In this document: piece after piece, positions 564-55,661 of the stretch
How positions within the stretch are numbered: position 1 is the stretch's first letter
Layout of the letters: every line of letters begins with the position of its first letter
Position numbers and translations under genes: made by a program
Notes under the pieces: model-generated
Databases searched by the model: none
Told to the model about the DNA's origin: nothing
What the model saw: only the letters and a program-made list of their open reading frames with translations
Assembly (NCBI GenBank): GCA_048213135.1
Contig: PS015262.1
Coordinates: 22,300 to 79,491 of the forward strand
Origin: Reclinomonas americana ATCC 50394
Lineage: Eukaryota
Length of the DNA: 57,192 nucleotides
Direction: 5' to 3'

Positions 564-3500
564 ATGGAAGGCAACGGGCCTCCGCCACCTCTCCCACCAC
601 TTCCTCCCACTGCCACACAGCATGAAGAGGACGATGCGCAGCCACTGAACACACAGCAGTCGCCAAGTGCGCGACGACGCCAACAACAACAGCCAGAGCA
701 GCAGTCAAGCAGGCAGAGAGAACGAGCGACAAGGGTGTGTGTGTGTGTGTGTGTGTGTGCGTGTGCGTGTGTGTGTGTGCGTGTGTGTGTGAGAGAGAGG
801 AAAGANNNNNNNNNNNNNNNNNNNNNNNNNNNNNNNNNNNNNCTCTCTTTCTCCGCCTCCATTCTCACCCTTTCCATCTTCCCAGCGACTGGTCAAGAAG
901 CCGCTCGTGATTGGCGACACCTCAGTCGAGGATGTGGTGGTGAAGGAGCGTGTCAAGCGCCCGACTTCGCCACCCGCACCCGCCAAGGTGTGCCCCCGTC
1001 ATCTTCCTCACTCTTGTCTCTTGCCATCACTGCTCACCCAGTCGGCATCGCAGGTCAGTCGCCGTCGCTTCCGCTTTCCCATGTCGGCAACGGTGACGAC
1101 CTTTCTGGCGGTGTTGCTGCTTGTCGAGCTGGCCATTCTTGGTGTGTCGCGCTCTTTCACCCCCGCCCTCCCTTCCTCGACCTTGTGCGCTCACTTCTTG
1201 GCCCATCGTCTGCAGCTGCCGTGTTGACCACCGGCAGCTCCTCGTCGGTCGGCTTGGTGGCGCAGCGACTGATCAACTGCGTGCAGAAAGACGCACACGA
1301 GGCCGTTGTGCGCATGTTCAACGATGAGGTAACTCGGTGCTGCGGCGAGGTCGGAGTATGAATGTCTCACAGTGTGACGTGCCAGGCCACGCATCTGCTC
1401 GGTATCGCAAGACAGACGATTCAGGCGGGCAAAGTGGGCGTCAGTCCCACACAACTGGTGGCCACTCGCGAGCACATGCGCGAGGTGGCCAACGTGCAGT
1501 TTGGCGCCCTCAACGCATACGTTTTTAACGAGATCGGTCAGAAGTTGGTGGCCTACATTGAAGGCTCGGCTGTGGTACGTGTCTCGCACCTGCACATCTA
1601 TGCTTCTGGCAGTCCTCTCGTTGGAAAGAAAAGCAGCTTTGTGCTCGTCATCCAGTCTGTGCATATGGCCTCCATTCAGAACTCTGCTTCTGTATTCTCT
1701 CTTTTCTTCTCTCTCTCTCTCTCTCTCCTACTCGCTCTGTGATACATCCGTGCCCGTTTTCGTCAGTGCGAACAGAGTCCTCCCTTTTTCTCACCACCCC
1801 CACCTCCTCGCAGACCAAATCCTTCAGCATCTTCATCAACAAGTACGATCGTGCCAACATGTACGACCGCCACTTCCTCGTGGACTCCACCGGCGAGTGG
1901 CGCAATCCACCGTTGCAGGTGGCCAAGCTGCCGCAGTTTTACATTTTCGATTCGGTGATCATGCCTGCCACTCATAATCGCCCCTGGTGCATTCACTGAC
2001 TCCAACCATGGCACGGCGCCGCAGTTCCTCCAAGTGATTCCGCCGTATGCGGACTTGATGCATGGCATTCAAGGGCGCTGGGAGGCCGTGCAGTTTGTCA
2101 AGAACCCAGAGTTCAATTTTGCGGAGCTCGCCCTGCCCATTGTTGGTGGATATTATTCGCAAGTTTTGTGGGGAAAGAAGGGAGGGAGGGAGGGCGAAGG
2201 CAGGGTGAGTAGAGGGATAAGTGGCTGTAGACACAGATACGAGATCCAGATGCTGCTGGCGTCTTTTGTCACTCGTGCACTGGCATGCGGCGCCATGTTG
2301 CACGTTCCATTGATAGAGCATGTTATATTGGGTCTTGAGTTGCAGCTTGCGTCTGTGTCGTCCACCGTGCACAGACATTTACCGTCTTGCAAATTTCGTA
2401 CGTGGTGGTGGGACTGTAGTTGCAGCTGGGATTGGTATAGTCGCCTATGCACTTGCACGTGCCGCCTGTCTTGCACTGTCCATGACCCGAGCGTGCACCT
2501 GTTATCGCCTGGGTAGATGCCTTTCTCTCTCTCTCTCTCTCTCTCTGTCGGGGCAGGGAGGAGGAGACAAAAGACGCACTTGCTTGTATATGATGTGATT
2601 GCCGTCAGCGAGTCAAAAGCTTTCCCCCTCACTTGCCTCTCTGTCTCCTTCCCCCTCCTACCTCACCCCGCTGATCAGGACCCCACCACCGGCGCCTTCT
2701 CCGTCGCTCGCGGCGTCATCATCCTCGCCATGTATCTGCGCCGCGCCGCCGATGTCCTGCGCACCCTGGCTCCGTTCTCGGACGCGGAGATCTTCATCTT
2801 TGAGGCGTCGGGCCTGCTGGTTGCGCATCCAACGCTGCCAATCATCACACCGGATGGACGGATCCACGCCTTGGACTCTAGCGATCTCGTGCGTATTTCC
2901 TATCAGGAGATGGTCAAGGTGTGCATTGGATTTCGTTTGTACCTTGTTCACAGGTGAAGGCTCATCTTTCCGTCCTCGCAGCGATTCGGCGCCAACATGG
3001 CCAGCATCGAAGACACCGACATGGAGATTGAGGTCAACGGCAAGCGGTACCTGCTGTTGGTACGTTGGAGTGTGTGTTCTTTCCCCCCCAGCGCACGCTG
3101 AGTCACAGATATGCCACAGGCGAGTCTGCTTACGCAGGAAGACATGGCGAATTTCCACGGCGACTTCACGTGGATCTCGGTGGTGGCCGTTCCGCGTGCT
3201 AGCATTTACGCCGTGGTCGAGCGCAACTACTACATTACCAGCATCATTGCGGTGTGCATCTCGCTTGTCACTGTGGCCGTAACCGCCTTTGTCATGTATG
3301 GCTTTGTGCGACCCCTGGTGACCATCAGGTATGCAGCGAGCAGGCGCGTTGTTCATGTCTCTGCGCGTGCAACTCACGTCTCTCTCTCTCTCTCTCTGTG
3401 CGCGCGTGCGTGTGTGCGTGTTGCAGTAATGACATGCTCAAGTTATCGGACTTCCAGTGGAGCTTCGAGTCGGACCACAATCGCTTGTCACGCTTCACGG

Positions 3501-4139
3501 AGATCGAGACGACAGAGAAGGCACTCATTCGTGTCGTGAAGGCCATCAAGTCGTTTGCCAAGGCATGTGAATCGAGCCCGATTTGCTGGCCGTGGAAACG
3601 CTCGCTGAATCCCTGTCGCGCAGTTCGTGCCGGTGCCCGTCGTGCGTGATCTCATTCAGAGCGATGCCGTGGCCGAGCTTGGCGTGGAGGCGCGCGTCCT
3701 CACTGTCCTTTTCTGGTGAGCTGCGATGGCCTTCTTGGTGGAGTCTTTTACGCGATCGAGTACTGACGCTGTAATGCGCAGCGATATTTCCAACTTCTCA
3801 TTTTTGGCCGACCGCTTGCCGGCCAACGATCTGCTGGCTGTGATCTCTGACTTTCTGCAAACCATGTCGTCTGTGATTGCTGCCAACGAGGGCACCGTCG
3901 ACAAATACATTGGAGATGGCATTAGTTGCGATGGCTGCGCCAGCCACGATGACAGTGTGCAGAGATGTCTGACATTTTTCTCACGACTATTACAGTGGCG
4001 TTCTGGAACGCACCCAACCCTGTGCTTCAGCACGCCTGTCGAGCGTGCACGTCAGCACTTCAGGCGCGTCGAGTGCTGGAGTCGTTGAATGCGGTGAGTG
4101 GCAGTGAACTGAGAGAAGCTTTCTTCTCTCTCTTTCGCT

Positions 4140-4173
<34 letters not shown>

Positions 4174-4604
4174 NNNNNNNNNNNNNNNNNNNNNNNNNNN
4201 NNNNNNNNNNNNNNNNNNNNNNNNNNNNNNNNNNNNNNNNNNNNNNNNNNNNNNNNNNNNNNNNNNNNNNNNNNNNNNNNNNNNNNNNNNNNNNNNNNNN
4301 NNNNNNNNNNNNNNNNNNNNNNNNNNNNNNNNNNNNNNNNNNNNNNNNNNNNNNNNNNNNNNNNNNNNNNNNNNNNNNNNNNNNNNNNNNNNNNNNNNNN
4401 NNNNNNNNNNNNNNNNNNNNNNNNNNNNNNNNNNNNNNNNNNNNNNNNNNNNNNNNNNNNNNNNNNNNNNNNNNNNNNNNNNNNNNNNNNNNNNNNNNNN
4501 NNNNNNNNNNNNNNNNNNNNNNNNNNNNNNNNNNNNNNNNNNNNNNNNNNNNNNNNNNNNNNNNNNNNNNNNNNNNNNNNNNNNNNNNNNNNNNNNNNNN
4601 NNNN

Positions 4605-4651
<47 letters not shown>

Positions 4652-5313
4652 TCTCTCTCTCTCTCTCTCTGAGCTGCAGGAGTCTGCATTCCGAATCTCA
4701 CTTCTTTTCTTCAGTTGGGTGACACGGTCACCCTGGCCAGTCGTTGCCACGCACTTAACAAGAAGCTGCTGACATCAGTGGTGGTCACGGAGGACGTTGT
4801 CGCACAAGCCAACTCTCTCTTCTTGTTCCGCGCCCTGCAGCCGATTCCCACCAAGGGCGGGCGAGGATACACCACTGTTGTTGCGTTTTCTGCCCTCTCT
4901 CACGACTTCTCCCCTTTTCAATCCTCACACGCCGACAACAAAACAGTACGAACTCGTGACGTCCCTATCGGAGGCGACAGCCGAGGAGCGTGCACGAGTG
5001 GCGCTGGCAAACAGCGCTGTCGACGCGTACAATGCCCGCCGCTACGCCAACGCAATCGCACACGCTCGTGTGTTCTTGGCCACCGAGCCGGGCGATGTGG
5101 CGATGCGACTGTTGCGTCCTCATTGCATGCGCGTGATTCTTGCCCCCTCTTTCTGTTCCCCCACCGTCTCGCGCGCGCGCACACACACACAGTTTGTTGG
5201 ACGAGTGCGAAACATTGCAGGCCAGTGAGGAGGCCGAATCATCGCCAGCCGAGGCCAAGGTCAGAGCGTACTCGGCGGCCGCAGACGGCACCATCGTCAG
5301 CGTAGGCAGATGA
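564..5313 (+). CDS. Receptor-type class III nucleotide (probably adenylate) cyclase: TM, Cache-like sensor, TM, HAMP-like linker, cyclase domain, helical tail; about 16 introns; gap inside
   Basis: Spliced translation gives SFAK|FVPVPVVRDLI, VLTVLFCDISNFS, GTVDKYIGDGIMAFWNAP, GDTVTLASR and PTKGGRGYTTV|YEL, with two hydrophobic segments (about 1081-1140 and 3235-3310). The K in VDKYIGD is the ATP-specifying residue typical of adenylate cyclases. TGA at 5311-5313. Confidence 0.85.
2268..2497 (-). pseudogene. Frameshifted tandem EGF-like (tenascin-type) repeat relic, antisense inside cyclase intron 2142-2678
   Basis: Three different minus frames read SGHGQCKTGGTCKCIGDYTNPSC, QDGKCLCTVDDTDASCNSRPNITCSINGTCN and HGAACQCTSD, with EGF-like cysteine spacing broken by frameshifts. 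Confidence 0.6.
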
Positions 5314-5394
5314 AAAACAAGATTAGCCACAAATTGTACATTGTTTGGATTAGCCAAGAGGAAACAAGAGCGGCGGCAGCGGCGGCGGCGGCGA

Positions 5395-8300
5395 TCACGG
5401 AGCAAATTCAATCTCCTCCGTCGCGTCGAAACCGTGTATTGGTGGCAGTCGCTCTCGTGACTGCGGCCGGTGCAGGCCCTCGAGCTCCTCAATGCGTGCT
5501 CGCAGCCGCTGAATCTCGGCCTTTTGCAACTCGATCTCGCGAAGCGGATCGAAATCCTGTGCGCCATGTGAGAACTGAGTGTGGAAGAGGGGCTTGCCGG
5601 GCAAACATCCCCTGACGCAACGTCAAAGCCTCCACCCGCTCCCCCGCCAGCGTGCTGTGTGCCGTCCTGTTGCGTGACAAAGAAGCTCTGTCGGCGGTGC
5701 GAGCTACCGGCACCGGGTCGTTGGCCAGCGCCCATGCTGCGCAGTGCCTTGTTTTCTCTTCTCAACTCGTTGATTTCGTGAATCAGAGTGATGTTTTCTT
5801 GGAGAATCTGTACGACACAAAGTCAGACCACGCATAGAAGAGTTGCGGTGCCAGCGACATCACGAAACTCTTCTGTTCTCCTTGCGCTGCGTCTCCGTGT
5901 CCTTGGCCAGCTTCTTCTTCAGCGACTCCACTTGCTTCTCCAGATACTCGCGCTGCCGCGAGTACTCGTCACGAAGCGGCTCGTCACCACCAGCCGTCTG
6001 TACAGTGATGAAAGGCGCACGTGAGTCCACATGACGGCAACTACCCAGCGCCCGAGCAGGCAAAGAAGACAGAAAATGAAGAAGAGAGAATGAGGGAGAG
6101 AGTGCTTCTTCAAGAAATAAACAAATCGTCTCCAATATCAGATATCTCAAGCTCTCTTCTGCAGATCATCGCCTTCTCATTCTCGAGTCTTCCCCCCATT
6201 GTTGCTCATCTCACTTCGCCCTCACTTACAATAAACCCTCCGTGCGTTTCCTATCCTCTCCACTTTCCTTCACTCTCTCCTCATCCCCTTGCTCTCTCCC
6301 TCTCATCTCAGTCGCATTCTTTGCTGTCCATCTCACCCATTTCTCTCATTTCTCCACTCTCCTTTCATCAACCTTTTCCTCTCTTCCCATCTCCCTTCCC
6401 CTTTCCACCCACCTGCTGCGGCTGCTCCACATACAACTCGTGCAGCTCACGCACGCGCTCCTTCAGCGCCCGCGGATCCTGAATGACCGTCAACAGGTCG
6501 TGCAAATCGCGCTCGAAGCGCTGTTGCAACAGCGCATAGTCGCGCAGTTGGAATTGGAGGCGCTTGTTCTCCTTGCGCGCACCGTGCACCTTCATCTTGT
6601 AGTCGTCGTTCTTGGTCTTCAACAAGCTGTTCTCCATCACGTAGCGCTCCAATTCCTGCTCAAACATGTGAGCACCATATCACACAACCCACCTATCCTC
6701 TTCCCACACTCAACACACCTCATTCATGCCGACGATTTCGCGCTCCATCTTTTCGATTTCGGCATTCTTCGGCCCGACTTGGCTCTCCAGCTCACGGAAA
6801 CGGTGCTCCGACACGTACTTGAACTTCTCCAGCTCCTGTTTCTCCTTGCGCAACTCGGTGGCCTTGCGTTCCTTCTCCATCAAGTTCTTGTCCTTCTCCG
6901 CCGCGTCCTTCTTCAACCGATTAATCTCCTTTTCGTAGTCGCGTTGCTTGTTGATCATCTCGGCCACCAGGTCCTCCTTGCGCTTCAGCTGCTCCTGCAG
7001 CTTCTTCACGTCCTGCTCGGCCTTGGTACGTCGGTTGATTTCCAGTGATTTGGCGCCCTTTTAGAGAAAGAGTGAGACCACGGCATGACTGGCAAGGGAA
7101 AACAACAGACACGAAGCGTACCTTTTCTTGCGCAAAGTCCTCCTTGGCCTTGCGGCTCTCGAGCAGGGCCTTCTCCTTGGAGCGCTGCAGTTGTGTGTCG
7201 TGGTCGTCCTGCATCTGCTTCATGCTCTCCTCGTGGCACTTCTTCTGGAACTCGAGCATCTCCTTGTGGTTGTGAATGGCCAGATCGCACTCCCGCAACC
7301 GCTCATGGAAAGCCTCGCGTTGCTGCGTCAACTCCTCCTGATACTTGGCCTCGATCGCCGCCATGTCCTCCGCGTGTTGCCGTTGCAGTTCCTCGATGCG
7401 CTCATTCAGCTCCTTGATGCGCAGATTCATCGCTTCGCTCTTCTCCTTGAACTCGTTCTTCTTGCGCGTCATCTCCTCTTCGTGCAGGCGCTCCGCGTTG
7501 TGAATCTCGCTCCGCAGACGCACAATCTCGGCCTCTTTTCTGTGCTCCTCCTCCGAGGCTTGTTGTTGTAATTGGTCGAGCTGGAGATGGCAAGATGGAT
7601 GAGTCCAAGTGTGCACACAAAAACATCTCCCTTCTCTCTCTCACACACACACCTTTTGTAACAACTTGCCCTTGTCCATCTCGTGCGCCAAGTGCAGCTC
7701 ACGCTCGCGAGTCTTCATGTTCACGTCGTACTGCTGCATGTTGGTCTCAATCGTCTGCTCCAGGCCCGCAATAATGGTGCGCAGATGCTCCAACTCCGAG
7801 TGCGAAATGAGCACCTCGTCCGAGAAGGCCACCTCCAGTTTCTTGGACTGCTCGGAAATGTCGCGCACGTCAAACACCATCACACAGCCGTCGCGACCGA
7901 CAGTCACCAGCGTCGACTCGTCGTACGACATGGTGATGGAGAGGATGCTGTTCTGGTGAGCCACATAGTCCTCAAACACATCTGTGCGATTGGGACGTAA
8001 AGGTTTCAGAAGGGAATAAAGTTGAGAAGAGGACGCAAACACTCTATTCTTTTTGCACTCACCTCGCTCCAGCGGGAACGGATAAAACCGAATCAGACCA
8101 TCCTCCTTGCCGGCGTAAATGGCACGATTGTTTTGCGCGTATTGCAGCTTGTACAACGCTACTCGACTGTTGATGACCTCGATCTCCTGGCCCTCGCTGC
8201 CGTTGAACTCTTGAAAGTAGTGTCGCCGCACGGGCTTGTCAGCGCCAACGGCGAAAATGGTGTCGCCGGGGCCGTACACGACTGACGAGTATCGACAGTT

Positions 8301-10626: not shown

Positions 10627-10773
10627 TCTCTCCTTGTTCCTTTCGCGACACAACGCAAAAAGACAAATCAACGGTCGCGTGACTCACCGTCGCATCTGTC
10701 CGTGTCTGTCCATCGCGAGCAGATATCCATTGTTTTTTTTTTCCCCCTTGCTCGATAGCGCAAGTAGTTCATC

Positions 10774-11235
10774 ATGGCTCAGCATTCGTCGATTGTTGTA
10801 TTGTTCGCGTTGCTGCTGGCTGCAGTGTTGATTGCGTGCACATGTGTGCATGCACGTGAAGTCGAGGGTTTGCCTTCTGCATGCAACTGCGCACACTGTT
10901 TGTGTGTAGTTTGATTGCCTCAGTTGTCTCGTATAGAGGACGATGACGTGGACTTTGAGGCGTTCTTGCAGCAGTTCAACGGCATGTCGGAGGAGGAGGT
11001 GGAGCGGGCGCTGGATGAGCTGCTCGAGGAGGAGGATGAGGATGATGAGGGGATGAGCTTGGCGGACGCGCAGTCGAGTGCGTTGGCGGGCGACATTCTG
11101 CAGGTGCTGCAGAGTGCGGCGGATTTGCTGCCGGTGGATGAGGCCATCAAGAAGGCCAAGAAGATTGTGTCGGATGAGCGCATGCAAATTTCGAAGCAGA
11201 ATGCGATGGAATATGAGTTCCCAGGTGTGTATAGG

Positions 11236-11275
<40 letters not shown>

Positions 11276-12613: not shown

Positions 12614-12818
12614 TAGCTGAACGGATGGATGTTTTTTTTAGTGTGTGTTGTTGTTTTTTCATGCTTCTTGCGTTACGCAGTGAGTCAACTGCACAGTGAA
12701 AATGTGCAGAAGTGTGCTTTATATACTCCCAGCAGTCGTCTCAAACAAACATCCTCTGTTGATTATCCTTTCTCCTCCCCCGCCCTTCCTCCCTCCCTCC
12801 CTCCACCTCTTCCCCTTT

Positions 12819-14529: not shown

Positions 14530-17011
14530 TCACACCGGCAGGCACTCTCCATTCGGGCACCTGCCACCAAACATCTGCGGCACAATGTCTGGCTCGCACG
14601 ACTGCACCAGCGCGTTAGGGAAGACGGCCGTCTCAATGGCACCCGCAGAGTCCACGGTGATCTCGGCAACACGCCACCAACGGTAGTTGTTGGGGTTGCT
14701 GGTAGGCACTGCCAACGTGGTGGTGAAGCCGCGCTCGTCAAAGTACAGAACCGAGGCTGCCGAGGTGTGCAAACGCCGCTCGGTGTTGTAAGTGATGGGC
14801 TGGAAGACGCAGTAGACATATCTGCCGCTGAGCCCAAGCTGAGCGATCTCGGTGACCTCGGGGCCGAAGCCAGCGGTTTGGTCCGTGCTCAGAACGGCAT
14901 ACGGCTCCTCGTTGAAGGCGCCAAAGTTGTAAGGCATCGGCTGCCCCGTCTCCCTCGCTCGCACAGGTGCCGACGGCTCCGCCTCCAGCTTCTCGCCGGT
15001 CACGCTGAAGTTTCCGTCAAACTTGTAAACTGGCGACGCCACGATGTAGTTGTAGGGCGTGGACAAGTAGGCGTCCAAGTCGAGTGGTTGCTCGCCCCAC
15101 GTAAGGACAAAGCTGGCGGGGAAGCTGCCTGGAAGCCCGTCCAGCACCACGTCGCCCAAGTCCACAACCGAGCCAACCGGGGGCGTAGTAAGCGTCTGCT
15201 CGGCGTTCTTGATGCCACGATAGTCGACCTGCAATTTGACCGTCTCACCGCCGCCCTTGACAATCAGCGAGAAGCGACCATCGGAGTCAGCCGTGGCCCA
15301 GTAGCTCCCGATGTACGAGACGCCAGTTTGGATCACACTAGCGCCGGCGATGGGGGAGCCAGTGGGGGACACAACGCGGCCAGTGAAGCGAGCGACCGTC
15401 CACACCTGGTCGTAGTTCCAGAAGGTGAAATGGGTCACCCTGCGGGAGACACCACAGAAGGGTCATTAGAAACTTTGCGCTCGCGAAACAGCTTACAACG
15501 GGACGAGTAATCGTGACTCAACTGGCCGACCAGTGCACCATTGCTGTCCTTGGTGGCCACTCCGTCCTCGATCCAGATGCCGAGGTCCTCGTCAAAGTAC
15601 CAAAGCGGCACAGTGCTGGGCGCCGAGGCGGCCAAGGATGACGACAATGAGATTGTGGCGCCGACATTTGGATCCAGCTTCGGCACCACTCCGGACGGCA
15701 GAGGCGACAGCGTGAGCACGAAGAAGCCGAAGCTCTCGATGGGAGCGTCAGCGCCGGCCTGGGTGCGGCCAACGAAGAGACCGGGGAAGGCCAGGATGTC
15801 GGTGGGCGAGCTGTAGTCGAAGGCAGCCAGGTTGACCGTGACAGGGTCGGTAATGGGCGCCCCGGTCGCCTCGTCAATGAAAGCGTTCGGTGGGAAGGTG
15901 ATGTTGTGGGTGGAAGCGGTCACGTCTCCACCTGTCGACGGGTCGACAGATTGGATGACCTGCGCCGCGGTCATGCGCAAGACGGCCTGGTTGATCTCGC
16001 CCGCAAGCACAGCCACCACTTGGAAGCCATCGATGTAGCTCGACGGATTCGGCGCTGAGCCGAAGCTGGCGCCGATGACAACTTGGGGGCCTGCCTCCAC
16101 CGCGGCCAGGAGGAAGGATCCATCGAGGCCAGTGATGGTGCTGAGTGACTGGCTCTTTACAGAAACAGTGACGCCGATCAGTGGAAAATCGGACACGCTG
16201 TCGAGAACATAGCCGCGCAAGACTCCTCGGGCAACAGAGCTGAAGCCGCAATCAGTGAGTTCACAGCAAAAAAACCTTCATCGATCCCACGTACCATTCA
16301 CGATCCGAGGTGGCGGTGGGCGGTGCCAACTCCTGTTGGCCCGCCCCACACACCGTCCACACCTGGCACGCTCGGCTGGTGCCAGTCGAAACGTTGCAGG
16401 CAGTCTTGAGGAACTGGCCATCGGGGCACGCGCTGCAGTCCACCGTCACGGCCGGCTCAGTGAACGCCACGCAGGCGCTGGCCGAACCGCAAATGTTGTT
16501 GAAAGCGTAATTGTTGGGAAACTGGGCGCCGTTGCACTGGCCCTGTTGCCCTCCAGCGAAGCACTGGCAAAATGAGCCTCGGTTCAGGTTGACCGAGAGG
16601 TCCGAGCGGTTGCCGCAGAAGCACTTGCCATTGGTGTGGCAGAAGCCAAACCTGCAGAGGGTCGGGAAAAACTTTGAGACATGGACTCGCGCAACACACA
16701 CGCGACACATGTGTCTGAGTTGACGCAACGGGAAGCTGCACTGAGAGTCCACCGTGCAGGCACCACCACCAATCGGCAGCGCAGGCGCAATGGGCGACGC
16801 CGGTAGATCAGTGGCAGCGATGCACGCCGTGGCCGACAAACAAGTGCCAGCGGGAGCGCCGGCATACGAGTAATTGTCGGGGAAAGGGAAGCGATTGCAC
16901 TCGCCACGCAGGCCACCAGCAAAGCACTGGCAACGATCTCCGCGGTTGAGGTTCAAGCTGCCGTTGCTGCGGTTGCCACAGACGCAAGCCGAGGTCGCAC
17001 TGCGCGCGTCG

Positions 17012-17062
<51 letters not shown>

Positions 17063-17237: not shown

Positions 17238-17819
17238 GTCTGCGCACACGCACGCACACACACGCACGAAACCCGCCTGTGAGCAGCGAGTAACACGGTG
17301 TCGTGATGACACAGCACACACTCCACCGAAATGTGAAGTGGGTCCGCAGAGCTGGAGTGGTATGCTCTCGCGAGGGGGAACTTAATCTGTGGATGTTCCG
17401 CTTCTTCCTGATTGCATTGTTTTTTCCGACGGCCGCAACCACACGCGAATTCTTCCGGTGGTGATAAGTACACTTGTCCCACACTTAACGTTGAGGAGGC
17501 CTATGCAGCTAATACACATGTCAACTGTGCTTCTTGTGCTTCTTGCAAGCATGTGCGTGGTATGAGCTGAACGCACTACGTATATTACATGCAGAACGTC
17601 GACGTCGACGTCGACGTCGATCTCAAAGCTTCCAGTTGGGGCTCTTCACGTCAAGAAGAGACGCCTACATCGTGTGCACCAGCAGGCGATTAAGCAAGGA
17701 AGCACAACGTTGCGGGGGACACCACGTGAGCCACTGTGTTTCCGAACAATCCGCCGGCGTCTTGTCGTCCAGATTTTTTGCATTTCGTTTTTTTCCTCAC
17801 TCGTGTGAGAGACACCACC

Positions 17820-18273
17820 ATGGGTCTTCCTCACCTATACACGGTGTTCCTCTGCATTCCACTGGCCGTGTTTGTGCTCACCGTGGCCGACATCTCGCAC
17901 GTGGAGAGCGAGGCACCGCATGTGCACAGTGGTGTGCCGGATTCCCCCTCTGCGTATGCATGGAAAGCGCTCTCACGGTCACAAGCCGACGAGGTGATCT
18001 ATGAGCAACGCGCACGCGCAGCAGTGATGGCGCGCGATCATCATCGGCAGCGACAGTCGGGATTGGGATTGCGCGGAATCGGACCTTCTTCGTATGCATT
18101 GTTGGGCAACTCGACGCATTGTGGGTCGAGCACGCTGTTGCCGACGATGCTGGGTCGCTCGTCGTTTCTGCTGGTGATGGGAGTGTTCAGCTGGGTGGCC
18201 GCGCTGGCGGGGATTGGCGCGTTTGCGGTGCGTGCGGGGTTCGGAAGTGGAGTGACTGAAGCATGCATGGCGC

Positions 18274-18319
<46 letters not shown>

Positions 18320-20697
18320 TGCTGTCATCCTCAGTATTGCTGCTGCCGGGTTCACTGTTATCTTTCGTTTTGTTGTCTGCCGTGCTTTATCTCAATACGC
18401 AATCCTCTCTGTTGCCCATTCTCCAAGTCTTCGCTGTGGCCTGGGGAAACAAGAGTCAAAGAGTCCTTTGACGCCTGTCCTTGGTGATTCCACCTCAGCT
18501 TTCCTCCACGCTGCGCAGACCATTCTCCTCGCGCGCAAGTCATTTCCCCCCCTCGTGGACGACTTTGTGTTGACAGAGTCGCTATTGAGCATTCTGCTCT
18601 TTGCGACCTCATTTGCCGTGTGTGTCTGGGGCGCCTTTATCATCGAGCAAGTGGACCACACGTTTGATGCGTACGAGATCACCTTCTTTAGCGGCCACCT
18701 GGCGCTTCTCTCCAGCTGCCTGCCACTGGCCATTTTGCTTCTCCGATTGCGGGCCTGCGAAAGGACCGTGTACACGGCTTTTGAGGAGTCGCCAACGAGG
18801 TTAGCTGTGTTGACGCCGCTTCTTCTCGTGCACATGTCAATCGTGGGTTCGCTGGGTGTCATGTACACTCTCGGACACCACTTGCAAAAGTTTCGTGTGC
18901 GAGAGATGGAGAGTGAGAGGAAGAGAAAGAGAGCGAGCTTGCTTATTTGTTTCTGTGCTATCGCAGCTGGGTGGAGTCCACTGGTGCGTCGGCGAACGCA
19001 CAGCGACTGTTTGGGTTCACTGTCGCGTGGCTGTCGTTTTACTACCTCCACGAGTTCTTCACTGTTTACAAGGCGTTCACCGCGCCTCCCAAGAAACCAA
19101 AGGGGCATACCAAACACAGTCCTGAGACCAGCGACAAGGAGCCTTCATCTCAACACAGTTACGCGACCTTTCTGGCCGGCTTAATCAGCGGAGCGGTGCT
19201 GCCCCCGACGCTGATTGTGGTAGCACTCATGGGCGGTGTGGGTGTTCTGGCGGCGCTGTATCCCGGTGCGTGTAGTATTCTTTGCCTGTTTCCCATGTCA
19301 TGCCGCTCATCGTCACCTCTGCCCTCAGACGTGTTGGATTTCTTTGGCGAGCAGACCAAGCCAGTGGGCGGCTTTATTGTCGCTCTGTGTTGCGTGGCAG
19401 GAGTTCTCGGCGTGTTTCTGCCGCTGTTGCGCGTGGATGCGGCGAAACACAACGTGGGAGCGGTGGTGGTTCGTCAGTCGTTGTCGCACTCACGTGTAGT
19501 GTCGCTCACTCTTCAACGAACGCAGCAACGGCAACCGGAGCACCCACCGCGTGGAGGCTCTAGATCTGAGACAGTGTCTCCACGACAGAATACGTTGTCG
19601 CGAACGTCTAGTGCTGCCACAAGTGCCTCTGGAGATGTAGATTATGATGACAGACGCATGTCAACTTCAACCGAGCCCAGCCAGGTGCGGTCACTTTTTT
19701 TGCACGCCGATGAATATCGAGCAACGCTTCTGACTCCTACAAACAGCGCGAATCGAATGCGAAAGCGCATGATCATGATGACCACCACGAATTCAACATG
19801 GACACGTTCTTCTTGATCGGCTGGCTGGCCGAGATATTGTCGTGCACCTGCAACTTGATTTACTTTTTGGGGTGAGACTTGCGAGTACTAAGAAGCTGTG
19901 CAACTGTGAGGCGTATGCGCTCACCATTGTGTGCAGTGGTGACGCGTCCCTCCTGGACCCCGCGCCGGTGAACCGAGTGGCAAACAGTTGTGTGCGCATT
20001 TTTTTGTTGGAGTGTTGCGCTGTTTGCTGACCTGCTAACAGGTATCAGTACCGCCATTCACTTGATCGGCGCCCTGGCAATTGTCGTTCCACTCGTGGCC
20101 TTTGAGCACAATCCACTGTTGCGTGAGTGATCGTGGTGCATACTTGCAGTAGCATCCGCACTGACCTGTCGCGCGCACACACACAGCAAGGTGTTGACGT
20201 ACTGTCAGGAGAAACTGTGGCGAAAAGCGGTGGTGGTGATCGGCCTGACGATTTTGCTGTTTGGTGCGTTCGTGTTGGTCTCGGGTCGATGGGCCTGGGG
20301 GAAGCAACACCGCCCACTGTCGCGTAATGCTCACAGGCCAAGTGGTGCGACTGGGTCTGACGTACGTGGACAAGCTGCACCCCGACATTTCTGTGATTGT
20401 TTATGGCGGTGCGCAGTGCTTGCTGCTCGTGCTTGATATTTGATTATCTCACTTGTCCACTGGAACACAGACTTGCATTCCAAGCTCACCCCACTCGTCT
20501 TCAAGTTCCACGTGACGGCCATTGAGGTCATCACGGTGTTCCTGGTGACGCTGCTGAGGCGCACGAAAGCCGACAATGCTCCACAGTCTGTTGCTCTCGC
20601 GGTTGTTCCCGTGAACGAAACGGGCCGGAATCCCGAACAACAGAGACTGTTGCCAGCAGCTCGAGCACGGTCTGCAGCTGCAGGAGGTTCTTTGTAA
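17820..20697 (+). CDS. Multi-pass membrane protein of unknown family; exact exon structure uncertain
   Basis: ATG at 17820, long ORFs 17736-19184 and 18947-19816 with many hydrophobic segments, short GT-AG introns, TAA at 20695-20697. Confidence 0.55.
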
Positions 20698-20985
20698 TCC
20701 TGTGTCGCTTGTTACTGAATGCATATGGCGAATGATGATGCTGTCGGTAAGAGCAAGATGCTTTCTCTGTGTGTTGGATCACGTGCACCTTCAAGACGTC
20801 GCAAACTCGGCGCCGGCTGTCACGTCTTGTCACCATGCAGAAATGCCAGTATTCGACACTTCGACTTTCACATTGTTTTCGCGATCTTTCAGCTGCTGGC
20901 GTGCTCAAGATGGTGATCATGCAGCTTGCCGCGTTGCTGTGGTGATTTTCCGCGAAATTTCATACGAATATCGGACGACTTCGTA

Positions 20986-22235
20986 ATGTCTCACGCGCGA
21001 GGGCGGCCCAAAGTACGCCACCCTGACACACACACACACTCTCTCTCTTTAAGCTCCCCTCCATCACGCACACACACACTCTCTGTCTCACGCGCGCGTG
21101 TATGCTCACTGGACTTCTCATTTCACAGTGGCGCAAGTTGCACCCAACGATCACCGGCTGGGAGCAGCTTCTGCACCCGCGTGAGCGACCCACGCACATT
21201 CCGCCGATCCGTCTTCCACTGGTCACCGATGCGCGCAGTGTGGTGACGGGAGTGAAGCGCCTGCAAACACCGCCACCACCTCCGCCGCCGNNNNNNNNNN
21301 NNNNNNNNNNAGAATGCCAGGAGCAGAAGAAGGATTTGACGATGGAGAGACGGACACTGAGATGAGAAAGAGAAACACAGTGGAAGAGAGAGGTGACAGA
21401 AAAGCGATTGAGGGTTACTCAGGAAACGAGATACAGCCTTGAGTTAGTGCGACACAGGATACACATGATGGCAGGCAAGCAACGAGAAGAGATAAACACC
21501 AGCAAGATGAGAGACACTGCAAAGGGTCCAGAACGATTTAGAAGAAGGCCTTGAGAGAGGTCGTGTCTGCGCTGAGCAGCAACAGCAGCCGTTGCCATCC
21601 CTGTTGGTATCCCCCTCTTTGTGTTTCTCCGACAGCACTTTGTTCAGCGCATCTGTCTTCGAGTTGATGGCAGTTTAACTCTTTTCACACGCGTATGCGC
21701 TCTCTTCCCGCATGTTTCTCTCCGTCTTTTGCATCCCTTTCCCTCTTCCTCCTCCTCTCTTCCCTCCTCTGCACTCTTCTCTTTTCTTCTCCCCTCCCTC
21801 TCTCCCGCTCTGTGCCTCGTCGCCTTCTTGTTACACTCACCACCGCTGTCCCCCCTCTCCTCACAGCTCTCCGTACCACCGAGAAACCGTGTCGCTGATC
21901 GCCCAGGAAGTGGGCACACTGGCCAGCGATCTCAAGTGGGATGCCGAGGTCTCGTCCCGTGTCCATCTCCCTGATCCTGCATTCTGCAAACATGCTGACG
22001 GTTTTCTTTCTTCTTCTTCTCCACCGCCACAGGCACCTCCCGATGACCCTTTCGAGGACATGCGTGGAGTGCCGATGCCGCCGATGCGGTGGAATCACTG
22101 TGCGTTCCGCCTGTCGGCCACCGAGATGGTGTTGTTTGGCGGGTGGGATCGGCAGCGGTGGATGAATGACACGTTTGTGTTCAACGTCGGTGTGTGTATG
22201 TGTGGTCGTGTCAGTCGTCTGTGGCCAAGGGCACT

Positions 22236-22266
<31 letters not shown>

Positions 22267-24799
22267 CACTGTGCGCTCACCAGAGCGAAACACTGTGCGA
22301 CGGTGCGAGTGCACGGGCATTGTGCCGTCGGGCCGTGATGGAGCGGCCATGGTTCCCGTGGTGTCGTCGGCCGGTGATCCCACACGCAAGGCTTTTATGT
22401 TTGGAGGTGTGCGCATGCCGGGGCGGCAGACGCGCGAGGCTTTTATTTTGGACTCGGTGGTGGGCGAAGGTGCGAGTGTGCACATGCAGTCCGCATTCGG
22501 GGTGTGTGTATGTTCACGTTTTGCCACGCTCACACAGTGTCCAATCGCCCGCCGATATGGTCCGGTGTACATTTTTCGGGCGAGATGCCGAGTGCGCGCG
22601 ATGGCCACTCTGCGGTACAGATTGGTCGTGGACGCGTGTTTGTTTATGGTGGCGCTGACGGAACCGGCATTGCGTTTGAGGATGGATTTGTGTTTGACTT
22701 GAGTTGCGTTCCGTCAGACTGAGAATGTGGGAGCTCGCTCGCTCACCGTGCCCGCAGACACTATGACGTGCCGTCGTGTGCAATTCTCGGGCGACGTCCC
22801 CGGTCCTCGTGCATTCCACATTGCGAGGATGATCAGCAAGAATCGCATGCTGATGGTCGGCGGTCGACCGGATTTGTGTGACACTTTCGTGTTGAATACG
22901 AGTTGCGTGTCGTGTGACGCACTGTCGCCCATTCTGCTGTTTCCAGTCCTCATTCCTCCTCCTGCACAGAAACGTGGGTGTGGTCGCGTCTTGTTTGCAC
23001 CGGCATCACTCCGCCTGTGATTGGTGGTGCGGCCGCAGTGATAATCGAATCCGACCGCCGCTTCCTGATGTGGGGCGGCGTCGACCGGGCGAATCCGTCC
23101 TCTCAAAAACGCTGCTGCTACGAGCTGGATTTGGGTTGCGTGCACGTTCATCTCTCCCTCTCCCGCCCCGATGATTACTCACCGCAGAATCGCCACCCAG
23201 CTTCTCTGGTGTGGTACGACCTCACCGACTATTCGCCGCTGGAGGACACACACTCATCGCCGTGCGCACGTTGGGGCCACACAATGGTGATGATCGAGCC
23301 GCGTAAAGCAGTTTTGTTTGGCGGTTGCTCACTGGCCGATGCCACCAATGCGAGCGCCTTGAACGACTTTTGGGAAGTCACCCTTCGTTGCGTTTCCTAC
23401 GTGCACTCCTTCTCTCCTCCTTTGTCGCTCACCATATTCACGCGCGCTCCCAAACAACAGCCGATGCGCCATTCACGTTCGAGGAGGCATATTTCAGTGA
23501 CGAGGAGAGCGCTGGCGGTGAGATATTGTCGGACGACGAGCGCGGCATATCCGCTGCCGAGGCCGTGGTGCGAGCCAACGAGGTGGCAGCTGGTCACTCG
23601 CCGCGACCTCCCAACATGTTCGACGGCATCTTCAAGCCGCGCTCACCGCGCTCGCCGCGCTCGTCGACGTTTTCCGCAGTCGACCCCTCGGCTGCCGCAC
23701 CTGAGCCACTTAGGCAGTCTGGTATGCAGCTGCACCCTTTTGTTGCTCCTTCCTTGTTGCTCACCACCAAAATTATCCGTGCAACACAGAGTCGCCGCCG
23801 CTATGGCATGATTCCGAGGCGCTGGCAAATGAGCACGGAGGCCGTGAAGGTGAATTCCGCCCCCATTTGCCTGCGTAGGGAAAGCGTCGCTCGACCGACT
23901 ACTCACTCCACACGGTTGCAGCCTTCCGGCAACGCTTGCAACCGCTGCATGGTGTCGGTGCAGAGAATCCTCCGCCTCTGCAGATGGCCGAACCAGTCGC
24001 TTCGCCGAGCGCCGCTGGCTCTCCGGTGCCTGTGCCGCTGCTGAACTTGACGGAGCTCGGCATTGGCGGTGGCCAGCACCAGCCTCCAATCTCCGTCTCG
24101 CCGGTTCCACCTTCACTTGCGGAGCCGGATGAGCCCTCCTCCGTGGCTGTGCCATTTGATCTGGACGAAGACGACGAGGAGGAAGAGGAGGACGAAGTGG
24201 AGGAGGAGGAGGAGGACCAGGGAGCGGGAATCGAGGCCGCGGCGAGCGATGTGCACGCTGGCAATGGCGAAGCGTTTGGCGCACCCGTCGCACCACCAGT
24301 GGCCAGTGGGTCGGAAGAGCCTCCTGTCGCCGACCGCTCGTCAATGGTCGTAGCAACAGTCATGTCCACGCCGCAAAGACGAGTGGCTCGCACGCGCAAG
24401 CACATGCGCCGCATGCTCACGCGCTTCGCTGAGGTACTCAGCGACTCGCCGTCGTTGAGAGAGGAGTTGTTGTCTGTGCGCGCCAGCGTGCAGCGTGTGA
24501 ACGACGCGCTGCCGCGCGATCCACAGCCGCCGCCGCAGTGGCTGTGGGTGTGTCCAATCACGCAGCAGATCATGGTCGACCCGGTCATCTCGTCACTCGG
24601 CCACACGTACGAGCGGGCGGCTCTCGAACTGTGGCTGCGTGACCATGCGCGATCGGACCCCATGACACTGGAGACCATGCCGTCGGATCAAGTTACTCCG
24701 AATTTGGCGCTGCGACAGGCGATTCAGGAGTGGCGGGCGGAGAACGGAGCGCGCCTGCTGGATTTCCCGGAGGTGGAGAAGAGGAATGAGAGCGAGGCC

Positions 24800-24833
<34 letters not shown>

Positions 24834-24853
24834 GCGGAAGTGGAGAGAAATAG
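20986..24853 (+). CDS. Kelch-repeat plus C-terminal U-box protein (probable E3 ubiquitin ligase)
   Basis: Kelch blades RWNH..LFGGW..WMND, PSARDGHSA..VYGG, FDL|NTMT, PGPRAFH, RWGHTMV..LFGG..LNDFW; U-box PPQWLWVCPITQQIMVDPVISSLGHTYERAALELWL...DPMT...PNLALRQAIQEW. The start codon is tentative (small gap at 21291). Confidence 0.82.
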
Positions 24854-24926
24854 TGCACAATGCAGTCTAATATGCATTACTGTCACACGTTTCCATCCCT
24901 GTCAACTACGTCGTCTACGATGATCA

Positions 24927-25581
24927 TCACAACGAGTGCACCTTCCAAGCAGGATCGGCGCGCAGCTGCTCGCCCATGGCTCGCGTACCAAAGATGACGG
25001 ATGCCGAGGGCATCACACCGGGCAACAGATACGACCGCGCCACACGACGCACGTCGTCGGCAGTCACCTCGAACAGCAGATTACGTCGCCTGTACAGATA
25101 TGTTGAGTGGATACCCAAGTCTATCAACATGCACGACAGCCAAAGAAAAAAAAGAGGCTCACCGCAAGCGCATCTCGTCCGTCAGCTGGAACGAGAACAG
25201 TGCACGGCCACGCAGCTGCACCGGCACGGGCGCATCGAGCTGTTTGAAGACGCCCAACTTGGCCTCTTGCAGGTCGCGATCGGTGAGTGGTGCCTCCTCG
25301 GCCACCCACCGACCGGCATCCTCCATCACTCGCAGAGTGGCCAGGGCTTGCGGGTCGCGGAACGAAGAGAACGAGAACACGCCGTCCAGACCCAGGGAGC
25401 ACCCGCTGCCATAGGCGCCACCCTTCTCACGCACAGCTGCGTGCAGATAGGTGCGACTGACGAGCTGTGACAACACCTCCAGGGCCGGCTGGTCCGGGTG
25501 TGTGTATGTAGTGCCCGTGTCAATGCTGCCAGTCAAAAAAGGCAATAGTTGGTACTCAAAAGGTCATAGCGTGAAACGAAT

Positions 25582-25646
<65 letters not shown>

Positions 25647-28600
25647 NNNNNNNNNNNNNNNNNNNNNNNNNNNNNNNNNNNNNNNNNNNNNNNNNNNNNN
25701 NNNNNNNNNNNNNNNNNNNNNNNNNNNNNNNNNNNNNNNNNNNNNNNNNNNNNNNNNNNNNNNNNNNNNNNNNNNNNNNNNNNNNNNNNNNNNNNNNNNN
25801 NNNNNNNNNNNNNNNNNNNNNNNNNNNNNNNNNNNNNNNNNNNNNNNNNNNNNNNNNNNNNNNNNNNNNNNNNNNNNNNNNNNNNNNNNNNNNNNNNNNN
25901 NNNNNNNNNNNNNNNNNNNNNNNNNNNNNNNNNNNNNNNNNNNNNNNNNNNNNNNNNNNNNNNNNNNNNNNNNNNNNNNNNNNNNNNNNNNNNNNNNNNN
26001 NNNNNNNNNNNNNNNNNNNNNNNNNNNNNNNNNNNNNNNNNNNNNNNNNNNNNNNNNNNNNNNNNNNNNNNNNNNNNNNCAATAGCAGCAGAAGCAGCAG
26101 CAGCATCAGCAGCTCATACTGAAATATGCTATACCTGCAACTTGCTGGTGACTTCCTCCAGTGGCTGCTCGCACAGGCTAAGCATAAAGTTCACTTGTGT
26201 GATGCCTGATTCACGTTCCGCCAACCACTGCGCACGCGCAAGAGACACATCGGTTTGAGACGACTACATCCATGTCATTGAAAACGCAGGCACGCAACAC
26301 CACCCGGCGACAAGTACGAGCGAGCACGAGTCACCGCCAGCTGATGGCCTGAATCCGGCACCGCATTCGTCATGCGGTTCTGCAGCGACATGAGGAGGCT
26401 CTTCAGCTGGTCGTGGTCGGCAAAGTTTGGCTCTGTCACCACGCGTGCCAACAGCGACATCATCTCCGGTACTTTGCGCTCCAGTGCCGCGCCACCGAGG
26501 ACAAACTCTTCGCGAATGGTGCGACCGTCTGCTCCACAGGGAAAAAACACACAGTAATTAACCGGCAATCACATCCCAGCGTGCAGCAGCAGCAGCGCAT
26601 CGCACCATGGTAATCCACACGGGAGCGCACAGAGGCCGACACACCACCCGACACGTTCAACTCGAGCTCGCTGCACACAAAGAAAAATGTGAGTCACGAG
26701 CAGAGACTGCGCAAAATATCTTTCGACAGCGCGCATAACTGCATATCGTAGTATGGCAGGGAGACGAGGCCGACCGACGTGAGAGCGTCGGCGTAGAGCG
26801 GCACCAGCATGCGCTCGTCGGCTGTCAGGAGCTTCGGCACCGGTAGCGAGCACACCAAATACCACAGCGAGTTAGTTGGCTGGTGGCTCACGTTGAGCTG
26901 AATCGGCACGCCCGACTTGCCGTCCGTCACGTGCTGCTGCAGCTGCGACGGCGACGGGAGCGAGCGGGACACGTCGTTGAGGGTGAGGGAGGGAAGGAGG
27001 GTGGCATCTGTGGAGGGGAATGCAGGACAGTGGGAAGGGGGCATAGAAGAGCGCGCTGACGATCACAAGAAATGGCGCCCCCTCCGGCAACACCACCGCG
27101 GTCGGGTCGACGACGGTGGCGTAGCATGCTCAAACACTGCGATTCTTCCTTTCCTGCATGGTGATGCGACATCTCTCGCATCCATCTCTCTCTTCCCCAC
27201 ACGGCTCTCCTCTCTCTTCCTCTCCCGCAAATTCCCCACGCACCCTGCAACGACTCCTGTCTCTTCTTCAACTCGACGGCCATGGCGCGCAGCCACAGCG
27301 CCTCGTCCTCTCCCAAGAACTTGGTACGCGCGACCAATCGCTGCGACTCCTCCTGCCTCTCACGCTCCTTGAACTGACGATCTGGCAACATCGTCACCGT
27401 CACCTTGCGCTTGTTATTCAGCAGGTGGACCGAAACGAGTTGCTGGAAGAATGGCTCAGACTTGCAGCGCTTGGTGAGCATCTCCACTTTCTGCTCAAAT
27501 ATCAATGTCAATGCAGCTGTGTGAGTCAGCGCACCCAGCACCTGGGTATTTCACACCTTGTTGACGGAGAACAGTCGCGCTGGATCGCCACCGTGCAGCC
27601 AGAAAGGCATGACGCGCGCGGCTGCGTTGATACCAAACGAAGTGCCGACCTACGCCTCACACAGTGAGGCAAAGCTCGCCCACCACCCACCACGACCGCG
27701 GCATGGACGCAACGTTCTTCTGCCCGAGCTCGATCTGGTGCAGGCACGCATCGATGGTCTGCTGCGGGAAACCCTGGCGGGCAACCGACTGCAGCGTGGA
27801 CTCGATGGCGGCCTCGATGGCCGGGAAGTCGTCGGCCGACGCTCCCTGCACGCCAATGCCAAAGAACGGTTGCCTGCGCCACGATAAGCGATCGGATGGA
27901 GACACAGAGTGCGTGCGAGAAATCCACTCACCGCAGCTGGCTCTCAAAGCCAGTGGCCGGCGCAAAGTCGCTGCCGAGATGCGATTGCAGCAGTGCCTCC
28001 GGAAGAGCACGTGTGAACAGCAACTGGGAGAGCATGGACAGGGAGAAGCACTCAAAGTCGTCCTGCAAGAGGTCGACTGATGGATGAGGACAAGGGGTGT
28101 CGCACCGAGAGGAAGGGAGAAGACCGCTCACCAGCACATGAGCTGTCGGGTAGATGTTAATGTAGCGTGCTTGGCGATTGGCATCCGACACTGCAAACAG
28201 TGTGTGGGTTTCGGGGCGTGGGTGAGGAGAGAAAGAAATCAGGCGTGCCGCCACAGCCACGCAACAGTCATCAAGCGGCCCCTGGAGATCCACACGCGAG
28301 CTACGCTGCGTGCTCTCCGACACGACATTGCGATACATCGCGCTGATGCGTCGGCTCATTGGTGGATACAGCACTTGGCGCCCGTGCTGACGCAGAGCGT
28401 CAACCACTGCCGTGTTGATGGTCTCCAGGTGCTGCTCGAGCGGGAAGTTGCCGTACGTGTACAGGAATGCGTTGGACAGGTTGTAGTAACGCTGGTAAAA
28501 GCCGACGAGCTCCTCTCGATCGAGATTGAGAATCTCCAACGGGTCGCCACCGCTGCACCGAGGTTTTGGTGATGGGAGGGGAAAGGAGGCAAAGGGAGAA

Positions 28601-55596: not shown

Positions 55597-55623
55597 CTGA
55601 CCAACACAAGAGCCCGACATGAG

Positions 55624-55661
<38 letters not shown>

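Follow-up and report, generated by a model that had tools for sequence, protein, structure and literature searches.

Introduction

Shifted-register 5′ splice sites recognized by U1 small nuclear RNA (snRNA) were reportedly described by Roca and Krainer in 2009, and registers with bulged nucleotides by Roca et al. in 2012. In the shifted registers of human sites every base pair with U1 is displaced by one nucleotide, exon position -1 is replaced by the first G of the intron and the cut is still made before GU, as laid out in PMC4856993. Shifted and bulged U1 registers are both established there, as in a review (PMC9311317), for rare human sites, and the validated non-canonical registers of all kinds amount to about 1.5% of 201,541 human sites (Tan et al. 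2016, PMC4856993). A different distinction, between left-handed and right-handed 5′ splice-site classes, is set by LUC7 proteins according to Kenny et al. 2025 (PMC11842720). Here we describe a stretch of 57,192 bases from Reclinomonas americana ATCC 50394 (contig PS015262.1 of assembly GCA_048213135.1, forward-strand positions 22,300 to 79,491), referred to as the window throughout, whose short introns carry two kinds of 5′ splice site (donor). Ordinary donors follow an exon G, while donors of the second kind, typically GTTGCGT, follow any other base.

The two donor classes exist in the window: the base at exon position -1 is linked to that at intron position +3, the profile of the second class is shifted, and a C is required at its position +5. 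A first-pass annotation of the sequence had listed five donors of the second kind as "plus-T" twins of ordinary donors, all but the GTTGGT at 2142(+) being called one T longer than a donor type used elsewhere in the window. We read the window as holding an ordinary class and a second class in a register shifted by one base, the listed sites being off-consensus members of the latter, and give this reading a probability of roughly two in three.

Two donor classes in the window

The window belongs to a draft scaffold; it has a G+C content of about 55% and is interrupted by 19 runs of N. Its genes are eukaryotic and intron-rich, with short GT-AG introns of a median length of about 68 nucleotides (nt). 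Introns were catalogued with a self-written two-strand hidden Markov gene finder. The window itself served as its training set, and its components are a coding model, a matrix for acceptors and a prior on intron length; it supersedes a single-strand version that was too noisy. A donor-blind run, in which knowledge of the donor was confined to GT or GC, returned 125 introns, and a donor-model run, with separate donor matrices according to the -1 base, returned 114. Class statistics refer to short GT introns of up to 160 nt; class 1 comprises the ordinary donors after an exon G (n = 56) and class 2 those of the form H/GTT, where H is any base except G and the slash marks the exon-intron boundary (n = 39).

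Donors of the H/GTT type make up 36-42% of the short GT introns in the window catalogues. Tabulated for T versus any other base at +3, the donor-blind set contains 6 and 38 introns with G at -1 and 32 and 29 introns with H (Fisher p = 3.7e-5), the donor-model set 9 and 47 versus 39 and 4 (p = 2e-14), and the introns common to both sets 4 and 32 versus 22 and 3 (p = 1e-9). The same association is found in 26 of the 99 introns, namely those without an alternative in-phase GT between 45 nt upstream and the first in-frame stop, a selection for which no donor consensus is needed (2 and 11 versus 12 and 1, p = 2e-4).

The heptamer GTTGCGT occurs 37 times in the window against 8.7 expected, a count reached by none of 100 shuffles, and most copies are followed by a CTCAC-like motif and a CAG 55-90 nt further on. 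Two of the 37, at 23135(+) and 10582(-), have G at -1 and are exceptions to the non-G rule. The copy at 23135(+), which is followed by CTCAC and CAG after about 50 nt, looks like the genuine start of an intron. Among the class-2 donors, position +5 is C in 34 of 39, and position -1 is A in 19, T in 12 and C in 8.

Apart from the donor, class 1 and class 2 introns resemble each other in median length (67.5 and 70 nt), G+C content (0.53 and 0.54), the presence of YTNAY 8-45 nt from the 3′ end (48 of 56 and 30 of 39) and C at acceptor position -3 (50 of 56 and 35 of 39). In reading frame, match to homologues, branch-like motif and YAG acceptor the plus-T introns are, as judged from sequence, U2-type GT-AG spliceosomal introns, the sites 18890(+), 15522(-) and 2142(+) being judged by frame only. 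A metagenome scan for close relatives gave none (80 loci kept, best identity 50%), and GTTGCGT stands at background level in these loci, with 1-3 copies in 26 of the 80. No account of such a donor class was found among the matches listed in a literature search by motif, supplements excluded, and an earlier description is possible.

Register of the second class

Base frequencies at +3 to +7 of the GTT class correlate with those at +2 to +6 of the G/GT class with r = 0.85-0.87 in the window catalogues, as the first-pass annotation had anticipated. For class-2 positions +4 to +8 against class-1 positions +3 to +7 the coefficients are 0.73, 0.82 and 0.78 in three catalogues, compared with -0.31 to -0.37 when the profiles are left unshifted; the bootstrap 95% interval for the shift of +1 is 0.68-0.89 in the donor-model set. 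Four of the five columns agree at this shift (p = 0.18-0.96, donor-model set). The column that fails opposes class-1 position +4 (A16 C15 G1 T24) to class-2 position +5 (A0 C34 G1 T4), with p = 8e-8 and, in the donor-blind set, 1.3e-4. The displacement extends to the exon side, where class-2 position -1 (A 49%, C 21%, T 31%) resembles class-1 position -2 (A 46%, C 21%, G 11%, T 21%). Of the register rule proposed by the first-pass annotation, the one-base displacement of the class-1 profile is retained, while its generality across donor types is lost and position +5 departs from it.

This departure is seen in the triplets that follow GT in class 1 and GTT in class 2. GAG is found in 12 of 56 class-1 and 0 of 39 class-2 donors (p = 0.0012), GTG in 15 versus 2, GCG in 9 versus 26 (p = 9e-7) and TCG in 1 versus 5, so that GTTTCGT outnumbers the donor proposed as its parent. 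In the donor-blind set the trends are alike, with GAG in 10 of 44 versus 0 of 32, GTG in 11 versus 1 and GCG in 6 versus 15. Under a pure shift, the 39 class-2 donors should include 8.4 GTTGAG, 10.4 GTTGTG and 6.3 GTTGCG, whereas 0, 2 and 26 are observed. Since the frequencies of the twins miss those of their parents, the listed sites are better read as variants of one consensus, H/GTT(G>T)CG(T>C); they are no evidence for a plus-T population of every donor type, because class 2 adds its own C at +5.

Word counts that involve no gene model give 8 GTTGAGT against 8.4 expected, 1 GTTATGC against 2.0, 12 GTTTCGT against 6.1 and, for the ordinary GTGAGT, 54 against 40. Among the listed motifs counted in this way (GTTGGT was left out) GTTTCGT alone lies above chance, 12 copies being reached in 4 of 100 shuffles. 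None of the eight GTTGAGT copies was picked as a donor by either finder. The ordinary donors regarded as parents are likewise uneven: G/GTGAGT is common and G/GTATGC occurs once, at 3329(+), while G/GTTCGT, also taken for an ordinary donor in the first-pass annotation, is found at most once, at 38385(-) and in the donor-model set only.

Donor sites examined with homologous proteins

The first-pass annotation had correctly located GTTGAGT at 15522(-), GTTTCGT at 5868(-) and 18890(+), GTTATGC at 26739(-) and GTTGGT at 2142(+), and had rightly noted a preceding base other than G (a, a, a, a and t, respectively). As donors these sites fare unequally: 5868 is fixed to the residue, 26739 belongs to the best profile model and 18890 is plausible, while 15522 and 2142 have in-phase rivals. 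The coordinates of the introns are compiled in Table 1.

The CFAP57-like gene provides the most precise case. Residues 7-43 of the upstream exon (5869-5997(-), ending in ENRR) align with residues 1062-1098 of the Chlamydomonas CFAP57 chain 8glv_Cp, and residues 1-29 of the downstream exon (5622-5807(-), starting with ILQEN) with residues 1099-1127. The exons abut between 8glv_Cp residues 1098 and 1099, and the intron 5868..5808 is therefore exact. The first downstream codon, ATT, encodes the isoleucine that is also present in three of three homologues among the matches listed, and a boundary moved by 1-2 nt would encode valine instead. Within the 60 nt of upstream exon examined, 5868 is the sole in-phase GT for its acceptor. 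Judged by protein alignment, A/GTTTCGT at 5868(-) is confirmed as a real donor, and GTTTCGT is a recurrent, real class-2 variant and the commonest one. At the GTTGCGT junction 9111(-) of the same gene the comparison with Protein Data Bank (PDB) chains of human CFAP57 and T. brucei CMF6 is consistent, not exact, the window protein being five residues shorter than both chains in a loop. A word-indexed protein search with a CFAP57 exon gave no match.

For the presequence protease PITRM1, a profile was derived from 150 relatives collected in a full HMMER search, of which 32 full-length ones were used, and all frame-compatible GT/GC..AG models were scored by this profile alone, without a donor consensus. 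Twelve donors were placed, eight by nine single-junction scans that yielded candidates and four by two double-intron scans. The junction from 29106 to 28959 is ambiguous within 2.5 bits, and two further junctions are lost in runs of N. All eight donors after G start with GTG or GTA (GTAATG, GTGCAG, GTGAGC, GTGAGT, GTGTGA, GTGCGT, GTGCGA and GTGAGC), and all four after another base with GTT, namely three GTTGCGT (after T, C and T) and the GTTATGC at 26739 (after A). Removing eleven PITRM1 introns together leaves an open frame of 640 residues that scores 612.5 bits against the protease profile.

The site 26739 is picked by both gene finders, and the Pfam family M16C_assoc matches its upstream exon; two more in-phase GT sites lie nearby, at 26778 and 26727. 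A/GTTATGC at 26739(-) is supported as the probable donor, with a lead of only 2.4 bits, and GTTATGC stands as a lone, well-supported outlier of its class. Searches of the PDB with a PITRM1 micro-exon of 21 residues and of word-indexed proteins with a PITRM1 exon gave no match.

In the gene for the largest subunit of RNA polymerase I, a GTTGCGT donor at 54684(-) is bounded on both sides by solved structures. Residues 1-37 of the upstream exon align with residues 1613-1649 of the S. pombe chain 7aoc_A and residues 2-32 of the downstream exon with residues 1652-1682, while the split codon L and the following C fill residues 1650-1651 exactly, as they do in the human chain 7ob9_A. The junction joins FLTDAA to (L)CGDVDTL without a gap in S. 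pombe or human RNA polymerase I. The intron is full of GGAGAGAGGGGGAAGGAAAT-like repeats.

The remaining listed sites are less firmly placed. The octamer at 18890(+) is identical to the verified CFAP57 donor 5868(-); this site was selected only by the donor-model finder, and three more GT sites are in phase with its acceptor, so that as a donor it is plausible on the basis of reading frame and gene-finder choice. For 15522 (GTTGAGT), the rivals 15504 (GTCCCGT) and 15489 (GTTTCGC) are in phase with the same acceptor, and the gene finders took one or the other of these, never 15522. The last exon of this gene has three distant matches in a word-indexed protein search. Homologues do not fix the junction, because P0151 covers the C-terminal domain only and the spacing in the distant homologue P0152 (32% identity), 27 residues, falls between the 23 and 29 of two of the donor models, the third giving 34. 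The Pfam FAM171-like profile stops nine residues short of the junction, leaving the next exon uncovered. At 2142(+) many in-phase GT..AG pairs exist, with rivals that include the textbook AGG/GTGAGTAG at 2205; nothing favors 2142, and the exons around it have no Pfam match. Both 15522(-) and 2142(+) are undecided as donors, and GTTGAGT and GTTGGT are unproven in this role.

Possible recognition by U1 and alternative explanations

Class 1 consists of an exon G followed by GT(G>A,T)(T,A,C)G(T>C) and class 2 of a non-G exon base followed by GTT(G>T)CG(T>C). In the proposed scheme the two are aligned on the recognized 7-mer, where both read G(G or T)TG.GT; the G that ends the exon in class 1 is the first base of the intron in class 2, and with respect to the remaining signal the cut is thus displaced upstream by one base. 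A U1-type RNA may read this 7-mer in one register with an arm unlike the human one (e.g. with G facing C), the cut being placed at the first GU.

Pairing was calculated by folding donors (-4 to +9) with the unmodified 11-nt human-type U1 arm given in PMC4856993, from which the arm of the host itself may differ. Class 1 pairs with a mean of -6.9 kcal/mol and always with +1G on nucleotide 8. The human-type arm would pair GTTGAGT (-4.1 kcal/mol) better than GTTGCGT (-1.8), yet GTTGAGT is the missing type; a standard U1 in a shifted register therefore leaves the C unexplained. Further energies were calculated for hypothetical arms with one or two changes. With G at nucleotide 5 and A at nucleotide 8, class 2 reaches -8.1 kcal/mol with +1G on nucleotide 9 in 37 of 39 donors, and class 1 only -3.6; with G and C at nucleotides 5-6, both classes are bound (-9.5 and -6.5 kcal/mol, against a background of -5.4).

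Several observations weigh against the reading of class 2 as a shifted register. With the human-type arm the mean for class 2 is -1.1 kcal/mol, while 300 random GT sites pair more strongly (-2.8), and only 6 of 39 class-2 sites adopt the shifted register with this arm, so that in these calculations the mechanism would work only if the U1 arm of the host differs from the human type. No Rfam family reaches its gathering score anywhere in the window, hence no snRNA does. Because G and T alternate in the donors, the profiles are correlated at a shift of +3 as well (r = 0.58-0.70), and the correlation test is therefore only moderately specific. The donor-blind and donor-model sets, of 125 and 114 introns, have only 69 identical introns in common, and the gene finder is crude, with known errors such as 28641 where the protease profile gives 28611. 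The profile margins of the PITRM1 plus-T donors are small (2-5 bits), and sliding both boundaries of PITRM1 introns by up to 3 nt alters the score by at most 9 bits, and by less than 3 bits for the four plus-T introns; with the exception of CFAP57, homology therefore determines which intron is present and of what length class, and the exact nucleotide follows from the GT-AG rule.

That the shifted profile agrees at four of five positions would also follow from a general register rule, under which any ordinary donor takes an extra T after a non-G exon base and twins are proportional to their parents, and single cases in which GTT is followed by ATGC (26739(-)), TCGT (5868(-)), GTGT (19987(+) and 39900(-)) or GGGT (43786(-)) point the same way. 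This rule is made quite unlikely by the scarcity of GAG and GTG and the enrichment of GCG in class 2, seen in both catalogues, and by the word GTTGAGT, which stays at expectation while GTGAGT and GTTGCGT (37 against 9) do not. It is hardly conceivable that the boundaries are misplaced and the introns begin three bases later at GC (GTT/GCGT), i.e. as GC-AG introns: an in-phase GC 3 nt downstream does rank second among the models at 27713 and 28265 and third at 26298, but the profile favors the GT model in all three, by 2.0 to 5.0 bits, the GC model adds a residue in RNA polymerase I that two solved homologues lack, and neither GTTTCGT nor GTTATGC contains a GC there. A single sharply defined 5′ heptamer and the absence of a liking for G-ending insertion sites are what relics of a mobile intron (introner) with the 5′ end GTTGCGT would show, the variants being decayed copies, and introners are known to bring splice sites with them or to recruit them (bioRxiv 10.1101/2020.10.14.339549). 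All-versus-all blastn of intron interiors, however, gives 31 high-scoring segment pairs for 741 class-2 pairs and 90 for 2184 between-class pairs, without a class-2 excess; these counts include repeats of one pair, and the class-2 comparison covers the 39 introns of the window. The best intron-intron matches are microsatellites in class 1, and the only strong similarities are due to (CA)n, (GT)n and (CT)n tracts. None of the 39 introns has a match of at least 4 nt between 5′ splice site and downstream exon in either geometry, and there is no terminal inverted repeat (mean terminal complementarity 2.8 of 12 nt). The C at +5 is kept despite fully diverged interiors, which argues for selection rather than recent descent. 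Mobile-intron relics are thus very improbable, and the view of the first-pass annotation that no mobile intron spread the plus-T donors is supported as far as a young family is concerned.

The nearest competitors concern the recognizing molecule. Class 2 might be served by a dedicated recognizer, either a second U1-like snRNA or a protein matching GUUGCGU, its likeness to a shifted donor being partly coincidental or historical. In its favor, the class-2 heptamer is much more constrained than class 1, the human-type arm binds class 2 less well than random GT sites, and the arm with G5 and A8 that suits class 2 binds class 1 poorly. Both classes, on the other hand, agree in branch site, acceptor, intron length and base composition, so that only 5′ recognition would differ, and one arm with G and C at nucleotides 5-6 binds both classes, though little above background; we regard a dedicated recognizer as unlikely. 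In a related form, the major spliceosome of the host would contain two parallel 5′ splice-site systems, an ordinary U1 alongside another snRNA of the U1 type, or an altered arm, with complementarity to GUUGCGU. The second RNA would set the cut one base upstream, and more than a third of introns would depend on it; this arrangement is possible, though doubtful.

Genes and other features of the window

The genes named above and the introns and candidate donors discussed are listed in Table 1.

Table 1. Positions of genes, introns and candidate donor sites in the window (slash, exon-intron boundary; bit scores are those of the best and the next model).
Feature	Position	Strand	Details
CFAP57-like ciliary protein gene	10195-5398	-	Pfam and solved-structure searches
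Presequence protease PITRM1/PreP gene	30189-24930	-	Pfam and solved-structure searches
RNA polymerase I largest subunit, C-terminal end	55587-54313	-	Pfam and solved-structure searches
CarboxypepD_reg/TNFR-repeat protein gene (CarboxypepD_reg/FAM171-like)	17231-14533		Pfam
61-nt CFAP57-like intron	5808..5868	-	Donor aga/GTTTCGTG, acceptor TACAG/att; exon alignment to 8glv_Cp
69-nt PITRM1 intron	26671..26739	-	Donor gca/GTTATGCG; best of 637 two-intron models, 109.7 vs 107.3 bits
PITRM1 intron	28191..28265	-	Donor act/GTTGCGTG; best of 230 models, 106.3 vs 104.3 bits
PITRM1 intron	27650..27713	-	Donor aac/GTTGCGTC; best of 8 models, 84.0 vs 79.2 bits
PITRM1 intron	26228..26298	-	Donor ggt/GTTGCGTG; best of 26 models, 69.7 vs 65.9 bits
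268-nt intron, RNA polymerase I largest subunit	54417..54684	-	Donor act/GTTGCGTG, main plus-T type (T/GTTGCGT)
Candidate 77-nt intron, multi-pass membrane-protein gene	18890..18966	+	Donor aaa/GTTTCGTG; frame 2 joined to frame 1
CarboxypepD_reg/FAM171-like gene intron	15440..15522	-	Acceptor firm; candidate donors 15522 a/GTTGAGTC, 15504 c/GTCCCGTT, 15489 t/GTTTCGCG
Long gap between two exons, membrane receptor-like gene	2142..2678	+	Candidate donors 2142 t/GTTGGTGG, 2163 a/GTTTTGTG, 2205 g/GTGAGTAG, or other
Predicted 74-nt intron	41107..41180	+	Donor gca/GTTTCGTA, further GTTTCGT donor; picked by both gene finders
Predicted plus-T donor other than GTTGCGT	2163	+	A/GTTTTGTG; gene-finder frame only
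Predicted plus-T donor other than GTTGCGT	19987	+	A/GTTGTGTG; gene-finder frame only
Predicted plus-T donor other than GTTGCGT	39900	-	A/GTTGTGTA; gene-finder frame only
Predicted plus-T donor other than GTTGCGT	43786	-	A/GTTGGGTG; gene-finder frame only
Predicted plus-T donor other than GTTGCGT	12308	+	C/GTTGTTTA; gene-finder frame only

Two homology-supported introns, 27008-27243(-) with 236 nt and 54417-54684(-) with 268 nt, are long compared with the norm of 55-90 nt. A candidate GC-AG intron, caag/GCATGTGA...CGCAG at 3563-3623(+), was picked by both gene finders. GTGTGT occurs 200 times in the window against 36 expected, and microsatellites of the types (CA)n, (GT)n and (CT)n are present in many of the introns.

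An inverted repeat of 182 nt with 97% complementarity (55445-55626 and 56914-57095) flanks the N run 55662-56128 and duplicates an exon of RNA polymerase I (peptide MEKKVLVLSVAES...) on both strands; it may be an assembly artifact or a recent inverted duplication. A very long exon at 36277-38104(-) encodes about 13 near-identical tandem coiled-coil units of about 42 residues (...ATSEEHGQQLAAELATAREQLAASGQEGHQLGEQIAALKQQL...) and sits within a run of coiled-coil genes at about 32.8-47.3 kb.

Comparison with known systems

Under the shifted-register reading the host genome would provide a natural example, on a large scale, of 5′ splice sites used out of register, a mechanism known in human from rare sites only. 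Donor scoring with a single matrix that expects G at -1 would place wrongly, or overlook, about one in three introns of this host, and the donor-blind finder employed here did misplace several. One second consensus, in place of any donor plus T, guides annotators as to which sites to accept, and the near-invariant C at +5 is a testable clue to the class-2 recognizer.

U12-type introns have the donor RTATCCTT and the branch site TCCTTAAC, a rigid 5′ motif, their own snRNA and no need for G at exon position -1. Class 2 of the window resembles them in being a second class with a rigid 5′ motif and no dependence on a -1 G. A U12-type identity was considered and rejected, as the donor is GTTGCGT, not RTATCCTT, and class 2 shares its branch region and CAG acceptor with class 1; at about 36-42%, class 2 is moreover far too abundant for a minor class. 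With introner-like elements the window shares many introns with a common defined end and without an AG/G exon context, while class 2 differs from them in having no sequence family, target-site duplication or inverted ends among the 39 introns compared. The LUC7-dependent classes are, like those of the window, two U2-type donor classes that rely on the exon side or on the intron side; they share one register and differ by degree, however, whereas class 2 shows almost no variation and lies one base out of register.

The closest parallels are found among the human U1 registers. One extra U after GU in class 2 recalls a bulge at +2/+3 as tabulated in PMC4856993. A register of this kind was rejected for class 2: it predicts that G is favored at -1, and G is found there in 2 of 37 GTTGCGT sites, with A19 T12 C8 in class 2. 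An exon position -1 that is rich in A and poor in G fits the shifted register, in which it faces U1 nucleotide 10, and not the +2/+3 bulge, in which it faces C9 and G is favored. With the human shifted register the window has in common that the class-2 consensus is, position +5 excepted, the ordinary consensus displaced by one base, the exon side included. It differs in that the class comprises about 36-42% of short introns and has a fixed consensus, with a C that the human-type U1 arm is unable to pair.

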